52,852 nt of DNA from Candidatus Nanoarchaeia archaeon (GCA_038851215.1 JAWCLD010000001.1:1-52852), one strand, 5' to 3'. Positions 1-32,844 are shown, numbered from the stretch's first letter. Numbers and translations: made by a program. Notes: generated by a model from the letters alone, not told the origin.

Positions 1-2245
1 TTGTTAGTGTTGTTGCCGTCTTATCAGCACATATACCCCTATAACCAGAGTTTATACCAACACCGTCAACAATATGTCCCTGTCCGTCAAATATGACATC
101 ACTTGAAGTAATGTTAATGCAGCACTCTGCGTGACTATTTAAAATATCCTGAGTTAGTGCATAATAGCCTGGTGTTGTAATATTTATGCAATTTGCTACA
201 TTAACAGAACCGACAAAGCCAAGAGGTGTAAATATACTGCCAAAATTAGTTATGTTTGCATAGACATAATTTGCTTCTGTGTTGACGCCGTAAGTTCCGT
301 CTGTAAATTCGTTAGGATCTGTAAACCACCCACTATTATTATGCTTAGCTATATTTAACTTGTTTTCATCAAGTTCTCCAAGCTCGTCTTCGTTATAGCT
401 TACATTTAGATAAAGCCATGAGCTTTCAGAATTATTTGTGGCTGTATTGTTTGTTAGAATGTTGTTGGAGCTGGAATAAAAGTAAATACCCTTGCTATCA
501 CTAGAATTAATGACGTTACCAGTAAATGTGTTATACCAACCATCGCCAAGTTCGATTCCGTTGCCTATACTTTTTGCAATAGTATTATTAGTAATGTTTG
601 TGTAATTCACATCCCATAATTCCATACCTTCCCAGTCGCTATAGTTGACATAATTATTCTCTATATTACTATAAACCAAAGAATCAAGTACTATTGCACT
701 ACCCCAACCATTTTTCTTAAGGTGTATAAAATTATTAGTAACATTTATGTAAATACCGTCGTCAACACAAATTCCCCAATTGGCTGAAAGCAAAGTATTG
801 TTTGCAATCGTTATATTAGTATTACCATTATAGCCGAAATCTATAGCATATCCAGCACCAGATATATTGTTATTTATTACAATGCTATTGTTCGCTTGAT
901 ATGCACCAATGCCTCGATCGTCGTTGTTAATGAGCGTGTTGTTTATTATCGTAAGATTAACAGAAAATCCATCTGTCTCTAAACCATTGCCATTATTGTT
1001 AATGATATTGTCTGTCAGGTTGTTGTTGGAGCTAGAATTAAGATAGATGCCATCATAAAAATTAGAAGAAACAAAATTATGGCTAATCAAACTGTTATTA
1101 ACGTTTTCCAACACTATACCAGCCTCGCCATTCGAGCTTGCAGTGTTATTATAGACTGTAACATTATTACTTTGTATAATTTTCAAGCCCGTTTTTAAGC
1201 CATAAGGCACGGAATTAAATATGTTGCTCGATATTGTACAATTTGTAATTTCAAGAAATACCGCATTATAATTACTATTACTACTTATATTATTGTTAAT
1301 AAAGTCCAAATTTGTGTATCTAGCATAAGTGCCATTCAGATTACTGTATATGTGATTGTCCGATATAGTTCCATTGACTATGCCTGAGGAAGAATCAGCA
1401 TAAAGGCCTAAATCATTATTCCATATCCTATTTGAGCTTATACTATATGTCGACAGACCAATAAGATCGTTACCAAGAACTAAGCCATAAGTATTGCTTG
1501 AAAGATTGCAATTCTGCAAAGTGGCTGTTTTAACGCCAAAGCCTACTCCTGTTCCCCAGTCTGTAACTACACAATTTTTTACAGTTACGTTTACTACTGC
1601 TCCGCCACCTTCATGCACGACATTAATGCCATAACTGCCAGTGTCATCGCCATCAATCGTATGATTTTGGCAATCCAACACAACATTTGAAGCATTAATT
1701 TTCATACAAGTATCTTGATTACTGTTAGAAATGTCTGCGGTCAAATAATAAGTTCCTGCAGCACTAAGGTCAGAACAAGTACTTATGTCTGCTTGTAGCT
1801 CAAAACTTGGCTGTTCTTCTACTGCTGGCTCTGTTTTGGTAATTTTACCATAATAAATTTCATAAGTGATGCTTTGCTGTTGTTGGGTTTCTGTCTGTAT
1901 TTCAAAAGTGGGTTCAATTTGTTTGTAAATTACATTATCAAAGATCACATCGGTTTCTGTACAAAGATTATCTGAATCGTAAATCTCATTTGTAGTTTCA
2001 AATAAAATAGCTTGGCCGTTTGCTTCTATGTAAATGCCTTCCTTGCAACTCGCCGGCTTATATCGACCAAATACAATGTGTTGTATAATTTTTTCTTGCG
2101 ATGAATTTGCAGCTATTGTAATGTGGTTTTCCCACTCTTGGCCATCGGCGGAGTAGCCTGCAAGACCAGTAAAGCTTGGTTTATACGTAAAGACCAATAA
2201 TACAAGACTAAAAATTATCACAAGGGCTGTAAACAATACTATCAT
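1..2245 (-). CDS. Partial (C-terminus runs off the window) membrane-anchored surface protein with right-handed parallel beta-helix (PbH1/NosD-like) repeats
   Basis: Absent from the ORF track because no stop lies inside the window. Reading the reverse complement from ATG 2245..2243 gives MIVLFTALVIIFSLVLLVFTYKPSF (hydrophobic anchor). Asn/Ile/Gly-rich ~22-residue repeats follow (ISSNSNYNAVFLEITNCTISSN, ITIANNTL, INVTNNFI). A second module head (TTPGYYALTQDILNS..CINITSSDVIFDGQGHIVDG) echoes the first (SAAGTYYLTADISNS..CMKINASNVVLDCQNHTIDG). The frame appears open to position 1 (hand translation). Confidence 0.7.
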   Translation of the reverse strand, partial: MIVLFTALVIIFSLVLLVFTYKPSFTGLAGYSADGQEWENHITIAANSSQEKIIQHIVFGRYKPASCKEGIYIEANGQAILFETTNEIYDSDNLCTETDVIFDNVIYKQIEPTFEIQTETQQQQSITYEIYYGKITKTEPAVEEQPSFELQADISTCSDLSAAGTYYLTADISNSNQDTCMKINASNVVLDCQNHTIDGDDTGSYGINVVHEGGGAVVNVTVKNCVVTDWGTGVGFGVKTATLQNCNLSSNTYGLVLGNDLIGLSTYSISSNRIWNNDLGLYADSSSGIVNGTISDNHIYSNLNGTYARYTNLDFINNNISSNSNYNAVFLEITNCTISSNIFNSVPYGLKTGLKIIQSNNVTVYNNTASSNGEAGIVLENVNNSLISHNFVSSNFYDGIYLNSSSNNNLTDNIINNNGNGLETDGFSVNLTIINNTLINNDDRGIGAYQANNSIVINNNISGAGYAIDFGYNGNTNITIANNTLLSANWGICVDDGIYINVTNNFIHLKKNGWGSAIVLDSLVYSNIENNYVNYSDWEGMELWDVNYTNITNNTIAKSIGNGIELGDGWYNTFTGNVINSSDSKGIYFYSSSNNILTNNTATNNSESSWLYLNVSYNEDELGELDENKLNIAKHNNSGWFTDPNEFTDGTYGVNTEANYVYANITNFGSIFTPLGFVGSVNVANCINITTPGYYALTQDILNSHAECCINITSSDVIFDGQGHIVDGVGINSGYRGICADKTATTLT

Positions 2246-2280
2246 CGTTTTAACGCCTTTGCTAAATATTTGCTTTTGTT

Positions 2281-2490
2281 CTACCTTTTTACTGCGAGCC
2301 ATAAGTTAACCCCTGCTTTTTTCATTCTTTGAACTTTACCTTCTAGCGTAAGTTCTAACATAAGCTTTTCAGCAGTGTTCCAACTAATTTTTAAGGCGGA
2401 GGCAACCTCTGTTGTTGTAAGAATTGGCGATTTTTTTAAAAGCTCAAGCACACTACGCTTGTTCGCACTTAATTCGTTATGATTATCCAT
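2281..2490 (-). CDS. Small winged-helix DNA-binding protein (putative transcription regulator)
   Basis: 69 aa; SVLELLKKSPILTTTEVASALKISWNTAEKLMLELTLEGKV looks like an HTH plus wing. A TATA-like CTTTATATAG lies about 40 nt upstream. It sits 35 nt upstream of the beta-helix gene on the same strand. Confidence 0.55.
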   Translation of the reverse strand: MDNHNELSANKRSVLELLKKSPILTTTEVASALKISWNTAEKLMLELTLEGKVQRMKKAGVNLWLAVKR

Positions 2491-12101: not shown

Positions 12102-13849
12102 CTATCTTTTGGCTTCAATCTCTTTCTGTAAATCTTTAATGAAATCGTTAATCTTGATGCCGAATTTCACTTTTCCGCCTCTTGGCCGAACCGCAATCGT
12201 GTCAGATTTTTCTTCTTTATCTCCGGCTACAAGAATGTAAGGAACTTTTTCGATTTCTGCCTGTCTTACTTTATACTCTACAGTATTGCTGCTATAATCC
12301 GTCTCAACACGCAAACCGGCATTCCGGAGCTGCTTCTCAACCTTTTGTGCATAATTTAAGTTTCTGTCTGCAAATGTTAGCAATTTGACTTGCACTGGAG
12401 CAAGCCATGTTGGGAAAGCTCCACCATAGTTTTCTATTAAAATGCCAGTAAAGCGCTCGATCGCACCAAGTAAAGTACGATGTATCATAACAACCCTATG
12501 TAATTTATTATCTGCTCCTATATAATTCAAATCAAATTTTTCAGGAAGATTAAAGTCGAGTTGTATTGTTAAGCATTGCCATTTTCGGTTTAATGCGTCA
12601 AGTCCATGAACGTCTATTTTTGGGCCATAAAATGCTGCTTCGCCCGGCATTTTAGTATATTTTATTTTCTTTTTATCTAAAACTGATGTTAGCGCCGTTT
12701 CGGCTCTTTTCCATATTTCCTCAGAACCAAGATACTTTTCTTTCTCCGGGCCTCGCAAAGATAGCTCGATTATATAATTTTTAAAGCCAAATTGCTCTAG
12801 CATCCAGAGTCCGAATTCTAATACAGATTTTATTTCACCTTCAAGCTGATCAAGTGAGCAAAAAATGTGCGCATCATCTTGCGTTATGCTTCGCACTCGC
12901 ACTAAGCCGTGAAGCGCACCGCCAAACTCCGGTCTGTAAACTGTTGCAAGTTCACAATATCTAATTGGAAGCTCTCTGTAACTTCGTGGTTTAAACTTGT
13001 AAATTTGGATGTGAAAAGGGCAACTCATTGGTTTAAGCAAGTAATCTATTTCATCGACTTTCATTGGAGGATACATATTTGCTTTATAAAACACCCAATG
13101 CCCAGACGTTTTCCATAAGTCAATTTTACCAATATGTGGCGTAAACACATATTGGTAGCCGCGCTTGTCATGTTCTGTTTTCCAAAAGTCTTCTATTACT
13201 CTTCTTATGATAGCTCCCTTGGATGCCAAAGTGGTAATCCGGGCCCAACGGTTTCTGAGTAAATATTAAACAAATCTAGTTGCTGGCCAAGTTTAATGTG
13301 ATCTCTTTTTTCTGCTTCTTCTCGCCTCTTCAAAAAGGCGTCTAATTCTTTTTGTGTTGGGAAGCTAATTCCATATATGCGTTGGAGCACTGGTCTTTTT
13401 GGATTGCCACGCCAATAAGCTGCTGCAGTGTTTAGAAGCTTAAAAGCACCGATTTGACCAGTTGATTTTATTAAGGGACCGGCGCACAAATCTATAAATT
13501 TGCCATGTTGGTAAAAAGATATTTCTTTATCCGGAATCTCTTCCAAAAGTTCAAGTTTATACCTTTCATTTTTAAGTATCTTTTCGGCTTCTTTTCTTGG
13601 CAGCTTGAGATGTTTAAAAGCTAAGTCTGCTTTAATTATTTTAGCCATTTCTTTTTCTATTTTTGCTAAATCCTCTGCAGTAAAAGGGTCGCGCTTATCG
13701 AAATCATAGTAAAAGCCTTCGTCTATAGCTGGTCCTATGCCTAATTTTACATCAGGCCAGAGACGCTTAACAGCATCCGCTAATATGTGGGATGTTGAGT
13801 GCCAGAATGCCTTTTTATCCTTCTCCGTTACAAAGGGAGTCTTTACCAT
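12102..13849 (-). pseudogene. thrS: Threonyl-tRNA synthetase interrupted by a 1-nt frameshift (two ORFs, 13205..13849 and 12102..13229)
   Basis: The upstream ORF has the SAD/editing HxxxH (WHSTSHILADAV), DLCAGP and RDHIKLGQQLDLF, and ends ..GPGLPLWHPRELS*. The downstream ORF continues (M)ASKGAIIRRVIEDFW.. through the class II catalytic core and anticodon-binding domain. Adding one A at CCAAGGG (13216..13222 on the plus strand) would give the contiguous ..PLWHPKGAIIRR... Confidence 0.8.
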
Positions 13850-24119: not shown

Positions 24120-24455
24120 TTAGCCCGCAGATTTTCTCCAAGTATATTTGCATTTGGTGCATCTGAAAAATTGCGTATCTACGGTGTCCTCGTCGCCAAT
24201 AGCGCCTGTTGTGATTTGCGTCCACCAGTATGCTTTTTTATTACCGCATTTAGGGCATTCAGCATCTGCAATTGGGAAAGTACCTTCAATCTCTTTTGGA
24301 GCTCTTTTGAAAGTCCTCTCCTTTACGGGGCGAGGTAATTTTTCCTTAATTAGTATGTCTGATTTTTCGGCCTTGATGCGTGAGCCACATCTAGGGCAAA
24401 TAGCTATCTTTTTACTAGGCAACATTAACGTCTTGCACTTGTGACAAAATTCCAT
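24120..24455 (-). CDS. Divergent transcription factor S / RpoM paralog
   Basis: N-terminal Zn ribbon CHKC..CPRC. The C-terminal TFIIS-type ribbon CPKCG..FFRCTKCKYTW has an altered, longer acidic loop QITTGAIGDEDTVDTQ. I prefer the start at MEFCHKC. Confidence 0.7.
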   Translation of the reverse strand: MEFCHKCKTLMLPSKKIAICPRCGSRIKAEKSDILIKEKLPRPVKERTFKRAPKEIEGTFPIADAECPKCGNKKAYWWTQITTGAIGDEDTVDTQFFRCTKCKYTWRKSAG

Positions 24456-24469
24456 TTTAATCAGCGCTC

Positions 24470-24772
24470 CTAGTACTTCCTCCATCTATAACCGCATTTC
24501 TTGCATATAAAGAATTGGGTTTCAGGCTCGTCAGCAGCTCTAGTTTGTTGTGTGTAAAAATAAGCTTCTTGGTGCTTGCATTTTGGACATTCTACAGCTA
24601 TAGTAGGCATAGTTTCTGGAATTTCTTCACCTTCTTTAACTGCCGTAACAGCTTTTCGTTTGACAGTTTCCTTTATTTCGGCAGTTTCCGTCTCCTTGTA
24701 GCCACAGCTGCTGCATAAGAGACCCTCTTTGGCAGGTACTAGTAAGCCTTTGCATTTGGGGCAAAATTTCAT
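24470..24772 (-). CDS. tfs: Transcription factor S (TFS, TFIIS C-terminal homolog)
   Basis: MKFCPKCKGLL..CSSCG, and a C-terminal CPKC..QTRAADEPETQFFICKKCGYRW with the canonical acidic hairpin. Confidence 0.85.
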   Translation of the reverse strand: MKFCPKCKGLLVPAKEGLLCSSCGYKETETAEIKETVKRKAVTAVKEGEEIPETMPTIAVECPKCKHQEAYFYTQQTRAADEPETQFFICKKCGYRWRKY

Positions 24773-24862
24773 GATACGAAAGGTAAAGTTTTCATATTTA
24801 AGTCTAACGGAAGAAGGCACAAATACTGTGTTTTTTGCGCTAAGTTCGCACAGAAAATTTGC

Positions 24863-26465: not shown

Positions 26466-27170
26466 TCATTTAAAAGGCTTTGGGATGTACAAGCACTCTA
26501 AATCTAGTGCATTAACAACCGGCTTTTCAAAGTAATCATCAACAAGCCGTGGGCAAGCAGTATTAACCCATGCTTCGATGTGGCTGAAATCGAGCAACAT
26601 TGTATTTGTAATTATATCGCAAATGAAGAGGTAAGCTTTTTTTCCCAATTTCTCAAGCTTTTCTTTTAGCTTTACTGCAGACATTTGCAATTCATATTGG
26701 CCTGGCTTTGTTGACACGAGAATTCCAACAACTTTTGCGCTTTTGAAGCGCTCTAATTCTAGAATGTGCTTTTTTAAAAGATTCTTTCTTTTCCCCTCAT
26801 CCAAAAGCGTCAATTGTCCTGTAAAGGGGTCAAATACTAGTATCGGCTTAGAGCTTTTCATAAGCAGACCGAAAGGGTGAAATTCTCCAGTGCCTATGTA
26901 TAAAAAAGCTTCAATCTTTCTTTCTATAGCTAATGCAGAAGAGACATCGCAGCCAAGCACCTGTCCTTCCAGTAGAGCTGAGCCAGTTGGTTTACCCAAA
27001 AAAACAGTAAAGCTTTTGTCAGATAAAAACTTTTTAATTTTTGGCAGTTGACGGGCAAACTGTACTGTTGTAAGAAGACCTATTTTCTTATAGGAAATAT
27101 CTGGTAAGACTTTTTCCAAGCCCTCTATAACACTTTTGTTAGCCTCGACTTCAATGAATATAGTTTTCAT
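26466..27170 (-). CDS. dph2: Diphthamide synthase Dph2, C-terminal piece (domains 2 and 3)
   Basis: MKTIFIEVEANKSVIEGL..IGLLTTVQF..EGQVLGCD..FLYIGTGEFHP..VNTACPRLVDD. An ATG at 27170 is preceded by the TATA-like AAAGTTTTTAAATTG (27194..27208). The track start is a TTG at 27188. Confidence 0.8.
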   Translation of the reverse strand: MKTIFIEVEANKSVIEGLEKVLPDISYKKIGLLTTVQFARQLPKIKKFLSDKSFTVFLGKPTGSALLEGQVLGCDVSSALAIERKIEAFLYIGTGEFHPFGLLMKSSKPILVFDPFTGQLTLLDEGKRKNLLKKHILELERFKSAKVVGILVSTKPGQYELQMSAVKLKEKLEKLGKKAYLFICDIITNTMLLDFSHIEAWVNTACPRLVDDYFEKPVVNALDLECLYIPKPFK

Positions 27171-27228
27171 GCTTAATTGTTTACCCAAATAAACAATTTA
27201 AAAACTTTGGTTTGCGCCTAGATATAAA

Positions 27229-30200
27229 TTACGGCAAAATATCCTTAAGTTTGTTTGGGTCCCAGCCAGCTTCTAGTAATGAGAGCTTAATTTGCTGCGG
27301 AGTGTGGCCTTCATCAAGCTCCTCTTTGATATAATCTTTTAGCTTGTCAATGTCATCTGTAGGTTTAAGGACGCCAGCTTTTCTTGCATGGCTTTTTACA
27401 TGCTTTTCTGTCAATTTGCCTAGAATATCGTCAATGATATTTGAAGGCCAATTTGCACTCAACAATGCGGTTCGCACTTGCGCCGCAGTGAAGCCCATTT
27501 CAAGACATTTTCTAGCATATCTTTCAGCCTGTTCGATTTCTTCTGTTGGGACACTAACTTTGTACTGCTCTGCAAGTGCATCTAATTTTACTTGTGTAGC
27601 ATGCGCTGCACTGAGTGCGTTGTTTATATCAGCCGCAGACCAACCTCCTGCAGCTAATTGCTGGGAAATTTCTGAAGGCGAATATCCTTGACTAAGCATT
27701 GTGTCAACTGCAGGTCCAAGCTCACCTTCTCCAGGTGTTTCGACGCCATGTGCTACTGTCAAAGCAGCCAGACCGTGTCTGCGTTTATACATATAATACA
27801 ATCCACCTGCTATAATAGCAAGTATCACTGCTACCACAGTTAGCCACACATTTGTGCCTATCTTTTTCTTACAATCGTATGGACTTATTGCAGGTGTCTC
27901 GCCAGCAGCACTGTCGCAAACGCCATCACCGATAAGATATGGGCACTTGCAGTTGGGTGTACAAAGACCTGGACAAGCTACATCTTTAGAGCCGTCGCAA
28001 TCCTCGCCAGCTTCAACAACATTGTTGCCGCAAACTCCCTCTTGAGAATCTGGCTTGCAATCCACTGGAGAATTGGCGTAATTTTCGCCGTACTTTACAT
28101 CGCAAATGCCATCCCCTACTTTATATTTAGGTAATATGTCTTGATAGAGCGTCTTGTTGCAGCCTTCTGTTATATCATCAATCTTACCGTTGCAGTTGTT
28201 ATCAACATAGTCACCACAAATCTCCGTGGCACCAGGATTGATATCCTTATCCAAATCGTCACAATCCTTTGCGCCGCAGTCTCCACCTTCTACAGCATAG
28301 CCGTCAGCATCGATATCTGTGCATTCTATTACCTTATAAACTAAACTGAGCTTTTCGCTTTTAGTCGGGTCTTTTATATTTGTGGCTGTAAAATTGATAG
28401 TATAATTGCCAATCTCTACATCCTTCGCCGATATTACTTCGAGCAAAATCTTATCTTTGTCGCCAACAGCTATTGTGCTATTTTTTGGCGAAATTTCGCA
28501 CTCCCAGTCGCTTGGGCATTTTACAGAATAATCGAACCTACCAACACAATCATCTTGATTTTCAACTGTAATGTTATAAGAAACTTCTGTGCCAGCAGTT
28601 GCGCTGATATGTTTTGTTTTTGTACTAAGGCTTGGTGCTTCTCTGCTGCAAATCTTTATAGTATAATTGAACGTCGTGCTTGCGTTATATTCTGGATTTT
28701 CAAAATCGTAAGCTAAGGCGCTGAAACTATAGTCGTTAAGGCTTGCAGTAGTTGGTGAAGTTATTGCAAAAGGTACTGAGGAAGTTTTGCCATTTTTTAT
28801 ATCAAGAGTCGTACTGTTTGGCTGACATTTCCAGCCACTCTTACAACTTATATTCAAGCCAAACGTCTTGTCAGCGCCTCTGTAATTAGTAATTTTTGCG
28901 GTATAAGTTAAAGTATCGCCTTTGTCGCCACTTTGGCTTAACGGCTCTATGGCAAGGACAACAGGAAATACTTCTGCCTCGAAACTTATATTAGAGCTTT
29001 CGCTACACTCTGGCCAGCCATTTTCACAAAGCTTAGTGAGATCAAATACGCCTTCACAAACAGCAGTGTGCTGTCCTTCCGAAACGGCTGGGCATTTAAA
29101 TTTCGCACCATTATTCGTCCACTCCACCAAAGAGCAGCGCGTTGTATTAGTATCAATGTATGCACTCAAAGCCTCGCACTTTAACGCGTTATTACAGGCC
29201 TGTGCAAGACATGTTAAATTAAATTCAGTATTTGGGCGTACTAAAGATGGTTCTAAGATAGGTGTGCTTAACCTACATTCATGACATGATAAAATTACAA
29301 ATACGGTAGAGTTACCTTCAACATAATTTGATGCGCTTGCCGTTATTTCAGCTTCTCCTACTTGAGTGGGGGAGCTGAAGGTCACAGAGCATCCACCATT
29401 TGAAGTAACACATTTATTTGGACTTACAGAACCAAAGCTTGGCGAAAAGCTAATTATAATACCGTTGGCCCTATCCAATGTATTGGCAGTGATTGTTGAG
29501 GTCTCTTTTATAGTTATAATTTTGGGATTTGCGGAGACATAAAGTATCTTTTGCTGCGAGGAAACCGTTATGATTGTTTCTTGTCCTATCCCTTCATTAT
29601 TAGCTGCATCGTAACATTTGAACTGGGCTTTATGAGTACCTACACTTTGTGGCGTAAATTCAGTTTGCCAGGTATTTGTATTGCCTATTTGTTTAGCGGA
29701 TGCTTGCAAGACGGAATCGTAATAAAAGTCGCACTTGATTACTTTGACATTATCTATTGCGTTAGCGGAGAAAGTAGTAAGTTGGCCTACAAATGCTGTT
29801 GTAGGACTTACTGCAGATACTTTCGGCTTTTCCGTATCCGTGATTGAGTTAAATGTTGCGGTTACAGCTTTAGTTGCATCCATAATTATATTGCAAGTTC
29901 CAGTACCACTGCAGCCTGCGCCAGACCAGCCTGCAAATACGCTTCCAGAAGCAGCACTTGCTGTCAAAGTAACTGATGTTCCGCTAGCATAAGTTTCAGA
30001 ACAATCTGCGCCGCAATTTATACCTGCGCCCGTAACTGTTCCAGAGCCGGTTCCAGCTTTTGATACTGTCAGAGTATATTGTGTTGGTAAACTCCAGGTA
30101 CAGCCATCTCCTGCTGATTGATGTTGCTTGCATTCAGCTTCACCAAGAGTAGGACAAGCGTGTGGCGTTCCGGTGCAAATGTAATCGTTTATGAATTTGT

Positions 30201-30627
30201 CATAGATCCACCGGCAATTGTGAGAAATACAATTTGATTGTGTGAAATATTGGTTGCAGGGTTTGTGATTGCCTATACATTCTCCACTTTCTCCCATAGG
30301 TTGTGCGGGCGCGGCGAATTTGGCTAGCTGTGTGCCTGCAAAAAGCATAAGCCCCCCAAGTATTAAAATAAAGACTACGAAGAAAAGCGTCAAATTTTTG
30401 CGGAATTCTTTTGGTGTTTTGGCTGAAAACTTGTTTTTGAAGAACAAGTAAAGAAACACGCTTGCTACAATTATAACAAAGGCAGTAAATGATATTAAAA
30501 CTAGATTTGGGTTACTTTCTGGCGAGACTGCTGCTCCTGTTATTTGGTTAAAGCTATGCCAGCCTAGTATTACTATACCTACAAGCATTAATAATATTAT
30601 TATGACGGCAGTGGCCGAGCCTCGCAT
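27229..30627 (-). CDS. 1132-aa multi-domain membrane-spanning surface protein
   Basis: Three N-terminal TM segments and a Cys-rich module. InlB-B-repeat-like domain (YTLTVSKAGTGSGTVTG..INCG.DCSETY..GTSVTLTA..GWSG..C, aa 183-260). Ig-like domains and two paralogous CARDB-like domains with C.SGW.C / CPSDWEC. MopE-like metal-binding motif (DADGY..DCDD.D..INPGATEICGD.VDNNCNGKIDD). Myxococcus-type Cys-rich repeat (CGNNVVEAGEDCDG). TM at aa 927-946, then a cytoplasmic tail with three copies of a ~35-aa repeat. Confidence 0.8.
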   Translation of the reverse strand: MRGSATAVIIILLMLVGIVILGWHSFNQITGAAVSPESNPNLVLISFTAFVIIVASVFLYLFFKNKFSAKTPKEFRKNLTLFFVVFILILGGLMLFAGTQLAKFAAPAQPMGESGECIGNHKPCNQYFTQSNCISHNCRWIYDKFINDYICTGTPHACPTLGEAECKQHQSAGDGCTWSLPTQYTLTVSKAGTGSGTVTGAGINCGADCSETYASGTSVTLTASAASGSVFAGWSGAGCSGTGTCNIIMDATKAVTATFNSITDTEKPKVSAVSPTTAFVGQLTTFSANAIDNVKVIKCDFYYDSVLQASAKQIGNTNTWQTEFTPQSVGTHKAQFKCYDAANNEGIGQETIITVSSQQKILYVSANPKIITIKETSTITANTLDRANGIIISFSPSFGSVSPNKCVTSNGGCSVTFSSPTQVGEAEITASASNYVEGNSTVFVILSCHECRLSTPILEPSLVRPNTEFNLTCLAQACNNALKCEALSAYIDTNTTRCSLVEWTNNGAKFKCPAVSEGQHTAVCEGVFDLTKLCENGWPECSESSNISFEAEVFPVVLAIEPLSQSGDKGDTLTYTAKITNYRGADKTFGLNISCKSGWKCQPNSTTLDIKNGKTSSVPFAITSPTTASLNDYSFSALAYDFENPEYNASTTFNYTIKICSREAPSLSTKTKHISATAGTEVSYNITVENQDDCVGRFDYSVKCPSDWECEISPKNSTIAVGDKDKILLEVISAKDVEIGNYTINFTATNIKDPTKSEKLSLVYKVIECTDIDADGYAVEGGDCGAKDCDDLDKDINPGATEICGDYVDNNCNGKIDDITEGCNKTLYQDILPKYKVGDGICDVKYGENYANSPVDCKPDSQEGVCGNNVVEAGEDCDGSKDVACPGLCTPNCKCPYLIGDGVCDSAAGETPAISPYDCKKKIGTNVWLTVVAVILAIIAGGLYYMYKRRHGLAALTVAHGVETPGEGELGPAVDTMLSQGYSPSEISQQLAAGGWSAADINNALSAAHATQVKLDALAEQYKVSVPTEEIEQAERYARKCLEMGFTAAQVRTALLSANWPSNIIDDILGKLTEKHVKSHARKAGVLKPTDDIDKLKDYIKEELDEGHTPQQIKLSLLEAGWDPNKLKDILP

Positions 30628-30706
30628 AGCCTTATTTAGAAAGGGACGTGAATATAAAAACTTTGCCTGAATTATTTCTTAACTTCGTCGAATGTGAAAT
30701 GAGGTT

Positions 30707-31264
30707 CTATCGCTGCTTTACAGCTTTATAAATATCGCTACCAAGTGCTATTCCGCCGATTGTAAGCAACACTTCTAAACCGTCGATTAGCAATTGCATA
30801 TATGGTTGTAGGGATTGGGCAAAATCATAATACGCTAAAAATGACGACGCGCCAATGATGCCAGCTAATCCTAAACTGTCAAGAATTATTCTCGAAACGT
30901 TCGAAACAGAACTTCTTATTGAGGTACTATAAAGTTCTAGCGCTTTCTCGTATTGCGCGGCAGGTAGACTATGGCTTAAAATCTCTGCAAGATCTGTGGG
31001 CTGCTGCACATTTTGGATTTCAAAAATATGATATTTTTTATCAGGCAGCAAGTGTGTCAATACGGGGCGCTCACCAGGCAACTGGTTATTGAGGTCATTC
31101 AAAACGCGCTTAACTTCATTACCCACAGCTGCTGGTACATAGATGAAAAGAGTTTGTGGAAACTCGTCTGTCTGCGTAACAAAGCATATCGGAATTGGAC
31201 CCTTTCCTTCGTACTTTTTAATCTGCCTCAAGGCTGTCTTGTTTGGCTTTGGTATGTTTAGCAT
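30707..31264 (-). CDS. Hypothetical protein with C-terminal membrane segments
   Basis: 185-aa ORF, 6 nt downstream of the 119-aa ORF. Hydrophobic C-terminal third. No recognised motif. Confidence 0.5.
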   Translation of the reverse strand: MLNIPKPNKTALRQIKKYEGKGPIPICFVTQTDEFPQTLFIYVPAAVGNEVKRVLNDLNNQLPGERPVLTHLLPDKKYHIFEIQNVQQPTDLAEILSHSLPAAQYEKALELYSTSIRSSVSNVSRIILDSLGLAGIIGASSFLAYYDFAQSLQPYMQLLIDGLEVLLTIGGIALGSDIYKAVKQR

Positions 31265-31270
31265 AGCTCT

Positions 31271-31630
31271 TTACTCACTTTTTAGGCAAGGTATTCGCAA
31301 TTTTGGTTTCGAGGTTTCTTGTGATGGTGAGGTTTGCGCATAAGATTGTGGCGGTTGAGCCAATGGCACTTGCTCTGGCATTTCTTTTGATGTTTGAACT
31401 TTAGCTTCTAAGGTAAGTTGGCTAGATTGACTTTGTTGTACTGGCACGCTCTCTTCCTTTGATTTGTACCGTTTATACAACTCCTGCGCGCCATAAAAGA
31501 TTGGAAGTGTTAAAAGACCGCCTGTAAGAGCGTAAGGTATCAGTTGGGGAGAACCGATACATGCTGCGACAATTCCGCCCAACCCACTTAGTATGGCTGC
31601 TATTTCTGCCTTACTCATAACCAAAAACAA
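31271..31630 (-). CDS. Hypothetical two-TM protein with Gln/Ser/Pro-rich tail
   Basis: 119-aa ORF with two N-terminal hydrophobic segments and a low-complexity C-terminus (QQSQSSQ..QPPQSYAQTSPSQ). Confidence 0.45.
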   Translation of the reverse strand: MFLVMSKAEIAAILSGLGGIVAACIGSPQLIPYALTGGLLTLPIFYGAQELYKRYKSKEESVPVQQSQSSQLTLEAKVQTSKEMPEQVPLAQPPQSYAQTSPSQETSKPKLRIPCLKSE

Positions 31631-31693
31631 TACGTTAAGAATTTAAGATTACCGTTTCTGCAACAAGCATTATTAGTTAGTGAAACAATAATT

Positions 31694-31714
31694 AAAACAA
31701 AAAAAGAGAAAAAG
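31694..31714 (-). terminator. Oligo-T tract (archaeal-type terminator) after the 95-aa membrane gene
   Basis: The minus strand reads CCTTTTTCTCTTTTTTTGTTTT just downstream of the stop at 31727. Confidence 0.35.
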
Positions 31715-31726
31715 GATTTTCAGCAA

Positions 31727-32014
31727 TTACTTTAGTTTGCTGAAAATCTGTATGGCCATTGCTATAGCACCTATCAACACTAGGATAAACGCAATTACTA
31801 AGAAAATTATGTTTATCCACCCAATCGCTGTTGCAATCGTTGGAATTGCAGTTGCAATGGGCTCTAGTGTTGAAGCAAGGATAAGGAACACTGCGCCCGA
31901 GGCAATGTAGCCTAACTCCTTCTTCAGTGCTTCTACATAGCCGCTGTACTTTAACAGCGCTAGGCCTACCAATATTCCTATTCCAGTTCCAAGTATACCT
32001 TCCCAAAAGGCCAT
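31727..32014 (-). CDS. 95-aa three-TM membrane protein (paralog B)
   Basis: MAFWEGILGTGIGILVGLALLKYSGY.. is similar to the upstream 94-aa ORF. AAGGAGGA lies about 10 nt upstream of the ATG. Confidence 0.55.
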   Translation of the reverse strand: MAFWEGILGTGIGILVGLALLKYSGYVEALKKELGYIASGAVFLILASTLEPIATAIPTIATAIGWINIIFLVIAFILVLIGAIAMAIQIFSKLK

Positions 32015-32107
32015 TTTGTCATGTCCTCCTTTGATTTTTCAAAGGATAATGTTCCATTTCTCAACTCAATATATAAGGCTGTTTCATTTCTAACCAGTAA
32101 TTACGTT

Positions 32108-32392
32108 TTAGCCCTTCATTAAGTCAGCTGCTGCCCACAGACTACCTATTACTATTAATATAAAGGCTATTAGCTCCCAAGCAAATGTTACCCAGGCAGC
32201 TGCTGTGGATGTAGCTATCTTAGCTGCAAATGCTCCTGCGTTCCAGGCCAAGTCTATTATGTAAAACATTAGACCTGCCGCTATGAAACCAGCTGGCTTC
32301 TGCACTAGGTGCAATATGCCTGCGTACCTGAGTAGCACAAGGGCCGCAGCCAATCCCAAGACTAAACCAAATATTGTTCCTTCGATTGCCAT
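32108..32392 (-). CDS. 94-aa three-TM membrane protein (paralog A)
   Basis: MAIEGTIFGLVLGLAAALVLLRYAGI.. with the ATG at 32392 preferred over the track TTG at 32401. TATA-like TTATATAATATG upstream. Confidence 0.55.
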   Translation of the reverse strand: MAIEGTIFGLVLGLAAALVLLRYAGILHLVQKPAGFIAAGLMFYIIDLAWNAGAFAAKIATSTAAAWVTFAWELIAFILIVIGSLWAAADLMKG

Positions 32393-32487
32393 TTTGCTCA
32401 ACTTTTATAGTTAAATCATATTATATAAGAGTGTGTCACTCAGGTCTTGTAGAAAACATCGAAAATAATACTTAATAAAATTCTTAA

Positions 32488-32805
32488 TTATGTATCAAGG
32501 TTTGGTTTTGTTACAACTTTCCTAAATGCTGTGTGTCCAAAATTAATTAGCAAATCGAAACCAATGTTCTTAAGTTGTAATGGCAAGTCGCAAGCTCCAA
32601 AATTGCTGCCTGCCCAGAGCCATAGTTGAGCCTTTAAGTTGCTATCTTTTAGCTTTTTACTTACTTCATCGTAGATTTTAGTAGCATGTTGTTTAAGCCC
32701 ATCTGGCAATTGTAGACAAACCTTTGGGTTCTCCTTTTTTATTTTGGCTATTTCTGCTACAACTTTATTGATATTCAAGTTGTAATCCATAATTTGTTTA
32801 CTCAA
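32488..32805 (-). CDS. dph2: Diphthamide synthase Dph2, N-terminal piece (domain 1)
   Basis: 105 aa; VCLQLPDGLKQHA..NFGACDLP..GFDLLINFGHTAF matches Dph2 domain 1 (compare P. horikoshii VLIQSPEGLR..NYGACDPA..CDALIHLGHSYM). Confidence 0.75.
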   Translation of the reverse strand: MSKQIMDYNLNINKVVAEIAKIKKENPKVCLQLPDGLKQHATKIYDEVSKKLKDSNLKAQLWLWAGSNFGACDLPLQLKNIGFDLLINFGHTAFRKVVTKPNLDT

Positions 32806-32844
32806 CTATACATTTTTAAATTTGTTTATTGCTAATTAGATAGG

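Follow-up and report, generated by a model that had tools for sequence, protein, structure and literature searches.

The closest described counterpart of this locus is the split dph2 of DPANN archaea. Two reports describe, in the passages dealing with this gene, dph2 as separate N-terminal and C-terminal genes in several DPANN genomes (Narrowe et al. 2018, PMC6143161; Podar et al. 2013, PMC3655853), and in the nanoarchaeon Nst1 the gene numbers of the two halves, Nst 222 and 440, lie far apart (Podar et al. 2013, PMC3655853). Those passages of the two reports do not mention nested genes. The window analysed here, the whole 52,852-nucleotide stretch from a Candidatus Nanoarchaeia archaeon, shares the separately encoded halves but differs in that they bracket a small gene, p95, to which relatives often add genes for surface proteins. 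The first-pass annotation had described a five-gene membrane/surface cassette and missed its flanks: the cassette fills the gap between the N-terminal half (dph2N) and the C-terminal half (dph2C) of the split gene. All five minus-strand open reading frames of the cassette are present (Table 1); for p97 and p119, orthologs suggest shorter frames that begin at the internal ATG codons 32392 and 31618.

Table 1. Features of the dph2 gene nest, in coordinates of the window
Feature	Coordinates	Strand	Description
dph2 C-terminal half	26466-27188	minus	likely start ATG 27170, or TTG 27188
Large protein	27229-30627	minus	1132 aa
Cytoplasmic tail	27232-27792	minus	residues 946-1132, 187 aa; three UBA/RecX-like three-helix repeats
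TM4	27793-27849	minus	residues 927-945
Conserved stalk	27850-28971	minus	residues 553-926; two NPCBM_assoc/CARDB-like domains, MopE motif, CGNNxxExGEDCDG segment, two GDGxCD...SPxDCK repeats
Variable head	28972-30300	minus	residues 110-552; Cys-rich module, InlB B-repeat, weak Ig-like matches, Cys-rich segments
N-terminal signal/anchor helix and TM2-TM3 hairpin	30337-30621	minus	residues 3-97; from hydropathy
p185	30707-31264	minus	185 aa; ~120 aa soluble N-terminal part and two C-terminal TM helices; orphan
p119	31271-31630	minus	119 aa; likely start ATG 31618; lineage-specific
p95	31727-32014	minus	95-aa three-helix membrane protein; core nested gene
p97	32108-32401	minus	97 aa; likely start ATG 32392 (94 aa); p95 paralog
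dph2 N-terminal half	32488-32805	minus	~100 aa; likely true start ATG 32790

Together, the two dph2 halves cover the whole family profile. The N-terminal half corresponds to positions 1-60 of the 302 in Pfam Diphthamide_syn (PF01866) and matches residues 6-86 of Dph2 in PDB 6q2d, while the C-terminal half corresponds to positions 62-290 and matches Dph2 residues 92-309 in PDB 6bxm. Both are collinear with intact Dph2, the former up to 'GH..F' in the Hadarchaeota protein and the latter from 'MGL..LPTLYIE'; the split point lies after the 'GH..F' strand, and no residues are lost. The three Fe-S cysteines are kept, in 'GACD' of the N-terminal half and in 'LGCD' and 'TACPR' of the C-terminal half, and align with the motifs of solved and intact Dph2; from PhDph2, we take them to be the ligands of a 4Fe-4S cluster, each domain supplying one. 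A TATA-like box is found ~25-33 nt upstream of the ATG of each half, in the window as in the eight relatives inspected, and every gene of the interval between them is preceded by a promoter-like box of its own.

The core of the nest is p95, found in 82 loci as 57 unique sequences with a median amino-acid identity of 73%, raw counts that overstate independence because many metagenome loci are near-duplicates. It is preceded on the same strand by dph2N in 61 of the 62 loci with sufficient flank and followed on the same strand by dph2C in 32 of 34, the remaining two being local inversions. The minimal arrangement is dph2N-p95-dph2C, with gaps of 58-130 nt. A GGAGG Shine-Dalgarno sequence upstream of p95 is conserved, and the protein is better conserved than Dph2C (50/50 loci) and RpoL (45/45 loci), with pN/pS values of 0.07-0.25 and synonymous sites saturated. 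Judged from these substitution patterns, p95 is a real gene under strong purifying selection. An AF2 model (pLDDT 82) predicts helices at residues 2-22, 31-56 and 58-93, a fold with no match in PDB or BFVD. Its sequence lacks Cys and His as well as any motif for binding a cofactor or protein, and no p95 was found on viral contigs. Some Woesearchaeota loci carry a short, split-type dph2 C-half whose retrieved flank matched neither dph2N nor p95, among them L020 and L048 with ~10 kb on either side.

The other small genes are distributed very differently. As the first-pass annotation had it, two of the four small membrane proteins are paralogs (p95 and p97, 37% identity over 65 aa, E 2e-9), and none of the four, p119 and p185 included, has a family match in Pfam, NCBIfam, PHROG or PADLOC. 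The last two databases gave no match anywhere in the cassette. The helical membrane protein p97 carries a conserved D and E in its TM2 and TM3 motifs, FYVIDVAW and WELIAFIL. All of its 26 unique orthologs lie between dph2N and p95; they are confined to a subclade and accompanied by a relative of the large protein in 11/11 loci. A tally of gap content over 41 non-redundant loci gave 11 with p97 and the large family, three with the large family but not p97, and 27 with neither, an association in which phylogeny is a confounder, one clade containing every p97-positive locus. MscL was considered for p95 and p97 and rejected: the PDB profile match is collinear but has an E-value of 0.13, Pfam MscL matches 0/40 members, and the AF2 model of p95 has three helices as opposed to the two TM helices of MscL, which Foldseek did not find. 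The p119 protein consists of an N-terminal membrane anchor and a low-complexity tail rich in Q, S, P and E. It had no tblastn match in 124 related loci, and a weak match (29% identity over 80 aa) to the N-terminus of a 364-aa positional counterpart in one locus (L064). No match to p185 was found in the 124 loci either, and a search of 5.8 billion proteins yielded one match only, P0122, a copy with 99% identity. Two of the small frames, p95 and p97, are thus genuine and well conserved, and many related genomes have them together with the large protein in the same order (p97, p95, large protein); the five genes as a whole do not form a conserved unit.

The large protein has four TM helices by hydropathy (residues 3-21, 42-60, 79-97 and 927-945). 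Residues 98-926 hold 48 of its 49 Cys and 13/13 N-x-S/T sequons, and YKRR follows directly after TM4 in keeping with the positive-inside rule. This placement fits an ectodomain outside and a tail inside, and thus upholds the outside-TM-inside layout proposed earlier. The three-TM N-terminus recurs in P0133, most relatives having a single N-terminal helix, and its helices are unrelated to p95 (hhalign probability 1.6%). The protein starts 'MRG-SATAV...', with an ITGA motif further on. Most of the closer relatives compared have [KR][GA]S at the corresponding place, for which a class III prepilin-type signal (a [KR][GA] cleavage motif just ahead of the hydrophobic helix, cut by a prepilin peptidase) was considered; more distant ones have ordinary signal peptides, and the later (I/V)TGA motif is common to all.

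Domain searches confirmed some of the ectodomain modules named in the first-pass annotation and narrowed others. The InlB-B-repeat-like domain stands, with Flg_new_2 (PF18998) at residues 187-262 reaching 36.6 bits against a cut-off of 23.6. Ig-like domains are no more than suggested, because the matches to Big_7 (268-333) and FixG_C (574-628) fall below the Pfam cut-off. Paralogy of the two CARDB-like domains is borne out by 17% identity over 92 aa (pairwise E 1e-6), and NPCBM_assoc matches two stretches (35.2 bits, cut-off 24.4), but CARDB PF07705 itself has no Pfam match, so the name is valid only at the superfamily level. The putative metal-binding Cu-binding_MopE motif at residues 788-818 exceeds its curated cut-off with 40.8 bits; homology to the MopE copper protein is limited to this 30-aa Pfam motif, and no MopE-type model of NCBIfam is matched. 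The NCBI name of the large protein is 'MopE-related protein'. The GDG(I/V)CD...DCK duplicates are real (58% identity over 24 aa). The label of Myxococcus-type Cys-rich repeats is unconfirmed: DUF4215 and TIGR02232 do not match the large protein at E<=1 in Pfam and NCBIfam, and the CGNNxxExGEDCDG segment shows no more than a resemblance to such a repeat. DUF4215 does occur in one relative (P0149).

The tail was annotated as three helical repeats, and it is indeed predicted to be compact and folded: its AF2 model has 10 helices with high confidence (pLDDT 93.2, pTM 0.88), and 18 family tails align at 24-58% identity. The repeats follow the signature Y(V/I)xxxLxxG(Y/F/H)(T/S)PxQIxxxLxxxGW, the second and third being 37% identical over 43 aa. 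They match the UBA, RecX_HTH1/2, RuvA_C or RepB_primase_C families in 10-18 of the 18 members (RepB_primase_C 18/18; RecX_HTH1 14/18, best E 1.8e-8; UBA 10/18). When the tail of the window was scanned alone, the whole-sequence scores were 23.0 bits vs 22.4 for UBA and 27.7 vs 26.1 for RepB_primase_C. Three tandem three-helix units also occur in RecX, to which weak PDB profile matches were obtained (E 0.002-0.1). Unlike UBA and RecX proteins, however, the tail is fused to the TM helix of a surface protein, and it has no significant whole-domain structural match (Foldseek against PDB, best E 1.1). Pfam and NCBIfam revealed no kinase, histidine kinase, HAMP, MCP, GGDEF or similar output domain in the large protein, so that the earlier label 'signalling-like' is backed by topology only.

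The large protein belongs to a lineage-specific family: its C-terminal 340-580 aa recur in about 25 representative clusters with differing heads. The common core consists of the stalk with its MopE motif and GDGxCD repeats (aligned at 40-47% identity in P0124-P0131), one TM helix and the 187-aa tail. Most relatives do not share the head of the window's protein and carry CBM96, Laminin_G_3, FN3 or DUF2341 instead; the modules found among their heads include CBM96 and ConA-like lectin types. Where the family is present, a nest has one to three copies, with divergent tandem copies in L057, L060, L084 and L093, and all members with retrieved context sit in a Nanoarchaeia-type dph2 neighbourhood. 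When family members were chosen independently of dph2 and p95, those with informative context mapped to the same nest in 5/5 cases. A search with the whole protein is dominated by bacterial InlB-repeat proteins. The large protein has the same extracellular module types as modular prokaryotic surface proteins and adhesins (InlB B-repeat, CARDB/NPCBM_assoc, Big, MopE motif), but the likeness does not extend beyond single modules, which cover 5-19% of the query, and the stalk-TM-tail unit is found only in the ~25 clusters.

Given the topology, domain content, family structure and synteny established above, the interval is probably an old, conserved gene nest between separately expressed dph2 halves in Nanoarchaeia (DPANN of the Woesearchaeota/Pacearchaeota type), with an adhesin-like large protein. 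By gene order, it is a conserved neighbourhood and not a self-contained five-gene machine: the nest contains p95, joined by p97 in a subclade, and one to three receptor-like surface proteins, while p119 and p185 are present here only. The large protein is most likely an adhesin that is anchored in the membrane and has a docking tail in the cytoplasm, adhesion being read only from the types of its domains. The variable, disulfide-rich and probably glycosylated head would bind a ligand outside the cell, for instance a glycan or the surface of a host or partner cell. The conserved stalk, with its CARDB-like domains, MopE motif and GDGxCD repeats, would keep the head away from the membrane, the single TM helix would serve as anchor, and the three UBA/RecX-like bundles of the tail may dock a cytoplasmic protein partner, a role proposed by analogy to small three-helix modules as the tail has no whole-domain fold match. 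Such a layout would work as an anchoring adhesin does, with no enzymatic signalling output. Cadherin- and integrin-type receptors of eukaryotes likewise place variable binding modules outside, cross the membrane once and end inside in a conserved tail that docks partners and has no enzymatic function; the analogy is functional only, with no known relationship in sequence or fold to the large protein.

Several other readings were weighed against this one. That a normally single gene is interrupted, and that the interval has a GC content of 0.41 compared to 0.36-0.37 in the flanks, could point to a recently acquired island or mobile element that broke dph2 into two pseudogene fragments. This is effectively refuted. 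The same split with p95 inside recurs in 46 loci, where identity to the window's Dph2 halves is only 34-66%, so the arrangement is ancient; homology extends over the full length of both halves, the three Fe-S cysteines are all retained, and the arrangement is shared across the clade and not patchy. The GC3 of 0.338 is the same in interval and flanks, which makes the rise in GC an effect of amino-acid composition and leaves horizontal acquisition, for which the first-pass annotation had suggested this comparison, unsupported. The interval contains no integrase, transposase, terminal repeats or viral matches, and no flanking repeats beyond the promoter-like AT boxes. The tight linkage of the nested genes to dph2 could reflect a functional tie. 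If p95, with or without p97, worked for the split enzyme, perhaps tethering its halves to the membrane or helping them to assemble, and the adhesin genes were later passengers, this would explain the nesting, the near-invariant dph2N-p95 adjacency, the minimal three-gene units with their short gaps, and a p95 more conserved than either dph2 half. However, Dph2 is a soluble enzyme in solved archaeal structures, p95 lacks Cys, His and any cofactor or protein-binding motif, some Woesearchaeota loci, such as L020 and L048, have the dph2 C-half with neither dph2N nor p95 matched in the retrieved flank, and adjacency can persist through inertia in small genomes. We consider this role of p95 in the split Dph2 very unlikely.

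A different question is whether the large protein is a structural envelope component, S-layer or S-layer-anchoring, instead of an adhesin for a host or partner, with stalk, TM helix and tail as the anchor and the head as an exposed, fast-evolving face. An N-terminal signal with a C-terminal TM anchor, an ectodomain that is acidic, rich in Cys and contains sequons, a position among housekeeping genes conserved in many genomes, and a conserved base below a variable top would all agree with it. We nevertheless judge it unlikely, as the protein is missing from the nest in 27/41 non-redundant loci, occurs in one to three divergent tandem copies, bears lectin and CBM modules on its heads and has no S-layer family match in Pfam or NCBIfam. 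To our knowledge, a folded 187-aa cytoplasmic domain is also not usual in S-layer proteins. The attachment or interaction system proposed in the first-pass annotation finds support in the adhesin-type surface protein but not in the five genes as one unit. A single dedicated system with the small membrane proteins as adhesin subunits or accessories would account for one strand and short gaps, for the shared order of p97, p95 and the large protein seen in at least 11 non-redundant loci and around independently located members, and for a p97 never seen without the large family. Yet p185 is an orphan and p119 nearly so, L072 and L085, the closest complete relatives compared, have the large gene directly after p95, and each gene has its own promoter-like box. 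Moreover, p95 persists in 27 non-redundant loci with no large protein in the gap, so that it cannot need the adhesin for its role. Taken together, one dedicated five-gene system is quite improbable.

A more far-reaching proposal can also be made, which we regard as a long shot: p97/p95 and the tail-bearing surface proteins may together be a membrane apparatus for attachment that is specific to Nanoarchaeia, its genes staying within the split dph2 through expression coupled to that gene. The small three-helix proteins would then be its membrane partners, and the UBA-like tail its link to a cytoplasmic partner. If this were true, the nest would encode an archaeal system for cell contact that has not been described before, in organisms that are thought to live attached to a host.

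The five minus-strand ORFs described in the first-pass annotation are present exactly as reported, and they are directly flanked on both sides by the halves of a split dph2 gene. The window is an entire contig from a 'Candidatus Nanoarchaeia archaeon' MAG. Within the split gene lies a nest of genes that is conserved in Nanoarchaeia and here comprises a core small membrane protein (p95, named like the other small ORFs by its length), its paralog p97 and a receptor-like surface protein; a conserved five-gene system it is not. The N-terminal half, dph2N, matches positions 1-60 of the Diphthamide_syn profile and residues 6-86 of a solved Dph2, and the C-terminal half, dph2C, matches positions 62-290 and residues 92-309, respectively. 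Compared with an intact Hadarchaeota Dph2, the break follows 'GH..F' and the C half is collinear again from 'MG...TIFIE'; no residue is missing, and the three Fe-S cysteine motifs are all present. Reading of the sequence ruled out a split intein, since the extra residues at the junction number only about 10 and 8, too few to accommodate one.

Split Dph1/2 genes have already been published for DPANN archaea (Narrowe et al. 2018, PMC6143161; Podar et al. 2013, PMC3655853), and the split itself is therefore not new; it has so far been treated only as a curiosity and as a nuisance for completeness estimates. Loci from Hadarchaeota and Thermoplasmata carry an unbroken dph2. In some Woesearchaeota loci the C half is of the split type and neither dph2N nor p95 is matched in the retrieved flank, which in two of them (L020, L048) extends about 10 kb to each side. 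Three MAGs labelled 'uncultured Methanosarcinales archaeon' (L034, L044, L045) contain a short split-type C-half ORF that has no N-terminal extension; either the split also occurs beyond DPANN or the bins are mislabelled. Elsewhere in the window, threonyl-tRNA synthetase is encoded by two ORFs, one with the tRNA_SAD part and the other with the class II core and anticodon-binding domain; the pair represents a further split gene or results from a frameshift.

Coordinates of the features discussed, in the window unless a related locus is named
Feature	Locus	Position	Strand	Remarks
dph2N	window	32488-32805	-	N-terminal half of dph2
p97	window	32108-32401	-	
p95	window	31727-32014	-	
Shine-Dalgarno region of p95	window	32015-32040		GGAGG
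104-aa ORF	window	31692-32006	-	overlaps p95 in another frame
p119	window	31271-31630	-	
p185	window	30707-31264	-	
Large protein	window	27229-30627	-	1132 aa
Large protein, residues 1-32	window	30532-30627		N-terminal motif
dph2C	window	26466-27188	-	C-terminal half of dph2
Near-repeat at dph2N	window	32794-32820		27 nt
Near-repeat at dph2C	window	27177-27203		27 nt
Zinc-ribbon paralog	window	24470-24820	-	slight overlap with the next
Zinc-ribbon paralog	window	24120-24485	-	
Threonyl-tRNA synthetase ORF	window	13205-13849	-	25-nt overlap with the next
Threonyl-tRNA synthetase ORF	window	12102-13229	-	
Second large surface protein	window	2-2302	-	runs off contig end
Tandem tail-bearing copies	L057	10407-17494		
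Tandem tail-bearing copies	L060	10410-16773		
Tandem tail-bearing copies	L084	8903-16325		
Tandem tail-bearing copies	L093	11372-17093		
Run of five large proteins	L126	1-14212		

Related loci were collected by scanning species-representative genomes with the dph2 C half (L001-L049) and metagenomes with an alignment of p95 (L050-L124), and all window proteins were run against these 124 loci using tblastn. A p95 ortholog was found in 82 loci; dph2N precedes it on its own strand in 61 of the 62 that have enough flank, and dph2C follows it, again on that strand, in 32 of 34, with a local inversion in the remaining two. The resulting gene order is DUF357(-), dph2N, [p97], p95, [variable], dph2C, rpoL, (endoDU) and signal peptidase, and at its smallest it is reduced to dph2N-p95-dph2C, whose genes are 58-130 nt apart. 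Since many of the metagenome loci nearly duplicate one another, raw counts overstate independence, and co-occurrence was counted on 41 non-redundant loci. A member of the large-protein family sits between p95 and dph2C in 14 of these, as one to three tandem copies, and the copy closest to dph2C ends directly upstream of it. The family and p97 are both present in 11 loci and both absent in 27, the family occurs without p97 in three and p97 without the family in none, an association that is confounded by phylogeny. Six family members were picked solely for their protein similarity, and the five whose contigs are informative all proved to lie in the dph2 nest, three of them with the full dph2N-p97-p95-large order; the sixth contig is too short to tell. 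Co-occurrence of all five genes, which had been proposed as a check, thus holds for p97, p95 and the large protein, which are found together and in order, but fails for p119 and p185, neither of which has a match in any of the 124 loci.

Several local variations were seen. In L009, L060 and L128, an inversion puts dph2C-rpoL on the opposite strand and leaves the dph2N-p97-p95-large order unchanged. Four nests contain two or three tandem, divergent tail-bearing copies, and L126, one of the loci reached from relatives of the large protein, has a run of five large proteins, one of which is a Kelch beta-propeller/MopE protein. These arrays in relatives suggest local expansion and head swapping. 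The window also carries tandem TFS/TFIIS-type zinc-ribbon paralogs, and such a pair is likewise found downstream of signal peptidase in L125, L127, L128 and L129.

Among 5.8 billion proteins, p185 has a single relative, a 99%-identical copy. In L072 and L085, the closest of the complete relatives examined, the large gene directly follows p95, and L064 has a 364-aa gene at the p119/p185 position, with a weak resemblance to p119 in its first 80 residues (29% identity). That p119 and p185 are fragments of this gene was rejected, as only the p119 N-terminus matches, and weakly, while p185 does not match. Both are putative genes, lineage-specific fillers of a variable zone. The analysis as a whole cautions against taking the five adjacent ORFs as one system.

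The paralogy noted for two of the small membrane proteins was borne out for p95 and p97 (37% identity, E 2e-9), and all four small proteins indeed lack a family in Pfam, NCBIfam, PHROGs or PADLOC. The most conserved gene of the neighbourhood is p95, with a median amino-acid identity to the window of 73%, compared to 50% for dph2N, 40% for dph2C and 44% for RpoL; in conservation it surpasses dph2C in all 50 loci compared and RpoL in all 45, and exceeds the signal-peptidase gene as well. Its pN/pS of 0.07-0.25 (pN 0.05-0.19; pS 0.67-0.88, with synonymous sites saturated) therefore identifies a translated gene under strong purifying selection. The 104-aa ORF that overlaps p95 is very likely spurious, the conservation pattern of the orthologs favouring the p95 frame. 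A GGAGG Shine-Dalgarno sequence precedes the p95 ATG by 7-12 nt in the window, as it does in six (L001, L050, L057, L072, L082, L085) of eight relatives inspected. A TATA-like box lies about 25-33 nt 5' of the ATG of each gene except p95, which is leadered, and p185, which starts 6 nt after p119; judged from these signals, the genes neighbouring p95 look leaderless.

An AF2 model of p95, calculated with 31 sequences from database orthologs, comprises helices 2-22, 31-56 and 58-93 (pLDDT 82, pTM 0.70), and the charge distribution fits an N-out, C-in orientation. Searches of the PDB and BFVD returned no significant match. A profile match to MscL is collinear but non-significant (E 0.13) and has neither Pfam nor fold support, and matches to MARVEL/SUR7 and holins are weak, fit a hydrophobic composition bias and again lack fold support, so that all these assignments were rejected. 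The 26 unique p97 orthologs are always located between dph2N and p95, and have a conserved D and E in their TM motifs.

A compositional comparison had been proposed as a test for horizontal acquisition of the cassette. The higher GC of the interval stems from codon positions 1 and 2, and the GC3 of the large gene (0.338) is within the range of the flanks; on this ground, together with the absence of an integrase or terminal repeat at the nest and with clade-wide conservation, recent insertion or horizontal transfer was rejected. A viral origin was likewise dismissed, given that there are no PHROG matches and that p95 is absent from viral contigs. No RNA gene was found in the region. Both dph2 halves begin with a near-repeat (22 of 27 nt) that spans a TATA-like box and the first codons (TTG-G/AGT-AAA-CAA), and its exact 12-mer core occurs at those two sites only. 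With up to one mismatch, however, the core count is three, which 15 of 100 shuffles reach and which is not above chance, and in relatives the 5' similarity of the two halves is no more than that of generic TATA boxes (mean 15.1 versus 14.3-14.5 of 24). A conserved duplicated promoter was therefore rejected.

The large protein, named 'MopE-related protein' by NCBI, has hydropathy-predicted TM helices at residues 3-21, 42-60, 79-97 and 927-945. Residues 98-926 hold 48 of the 49 cysteines and all 13 N-x-S/T sequons, while the tail (residues 946-1132) has one cysteine and no sequon, and YKRR directly follows TM4; the outside-TM-inside layout put forward earlier is thus well supported by sequence. 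The proposed ectodomain modules were recovered in part. Pfam matches above curated cut-offs cover the InlB B-repeat (Flg_new_2, 187-262), two NPCBM_assoc (CARDB-like) stretches and a 30-aa Cu-binding_MopE motif (788-818), but the Ig-like matches (Big_7, FixG_C) are below cut-off, and neither CARDB itself nor the Myxococcus Cys-repeat models match in Pfam or NCBIfam. The CARDB-like pair and the GDGxCD...DCK duplicates are genuine internal repeats. That the N-terminal three-TM region is a fused p95-like unit was ruled out (hhalign probability 1.6%). A second large membrane-anchored surface protein in the window, with right-handed beta-helix/NosD repeats, is unrelated to the dph2-nest family.

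With the whole protein as query, bacterial multi-copy InlB-repeat proteins dominated the matches and no orthologs were returned; we therefore used residues 263-1132 in an exhaustive HMMER search. About 25 representative clusters have the C-terminal part in common, consisting of the MopE motif, a CGNxxxExGExCDG segment, two GDGxCD...SPxDC repeats, one TM helix and a tail of roughly 187 aa, with two CARDB-like domains added in the closest relatives. The heads, in contrast, vary, and include CBM96, Laminin_G_3 (a ConA-like lectin), Big_7, InlB-B, FN3-like, CarboxypepD_reg, DUF2341 and DUF4215 domains. Closer family members carry [KR][GA]-S-A-T-A immediately before the N-terminal hydrophobic helix, resembling a class III/prepilin signal, and an (I/V)TGA(A/Q) motif lies just past this helix in every member read, whether close or distant.

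The 18 tails that were aligned are 24-58% identical and, in agreement with the three helical repeats reported earlier, share three repeats with the signature Y(V/I)xxxLxxG(Y/F/H)(T/S)PxQIxxxLxxxGW. The AF2 model is compact and all-helical, with ten helices (pLDDT 93.2, pTM 0.88). Repeats 2 and 3 are also genuine internal repeats in the window protein. Scanned singly, the 18 tails match RepB_primase_C (18), RecX_HTH1 (14), UBA (10), RecX_HTH2 (5) and RuvA_C (5), all small three-helix bundles. Comparison with PDB profiles gave weak matches to RecX and UBA, and Foldseek returned no whole-domain analogue (best E 1.1). The description 'signalling-like' did not survive: Pfam and NCBIfam identify no kinase, HAMP, MCP or other output domain, and the protein cannot demonstrably be called a signalling receptor. 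We infer that the tail is a protein-docking module rather than a signalling enzyme, and the family most likely represents anchored adhesins with a cytoplasmic docking tail.

A light full-text search, directed at such DPANN surface proteins, returned nothing relevant, and we provisionally regard both the nesting in dph2 and the surface-protein family as undescribed. DPANN archaea of the Woesearchaeota/Pacearchaeota type occur in abundance, have mostly not been cultured and presumably depend on other cells; their means of attachment are, to our knowledge, almost undescribed. The split dph2 is shown here to bracket a small membrane protein regularly, and p95, highly conserved and annotated only as 'hypothetical protein' in databases, is an obvious target for functional work. 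The nest also provides a diagnostic genomic address that makes members of the large-protein family easy to find, and with swappable binding heads, a conserved stalk (residues 553-926) and a conserved tail that has no structural match in the PDB search, a candidate family is now testable.
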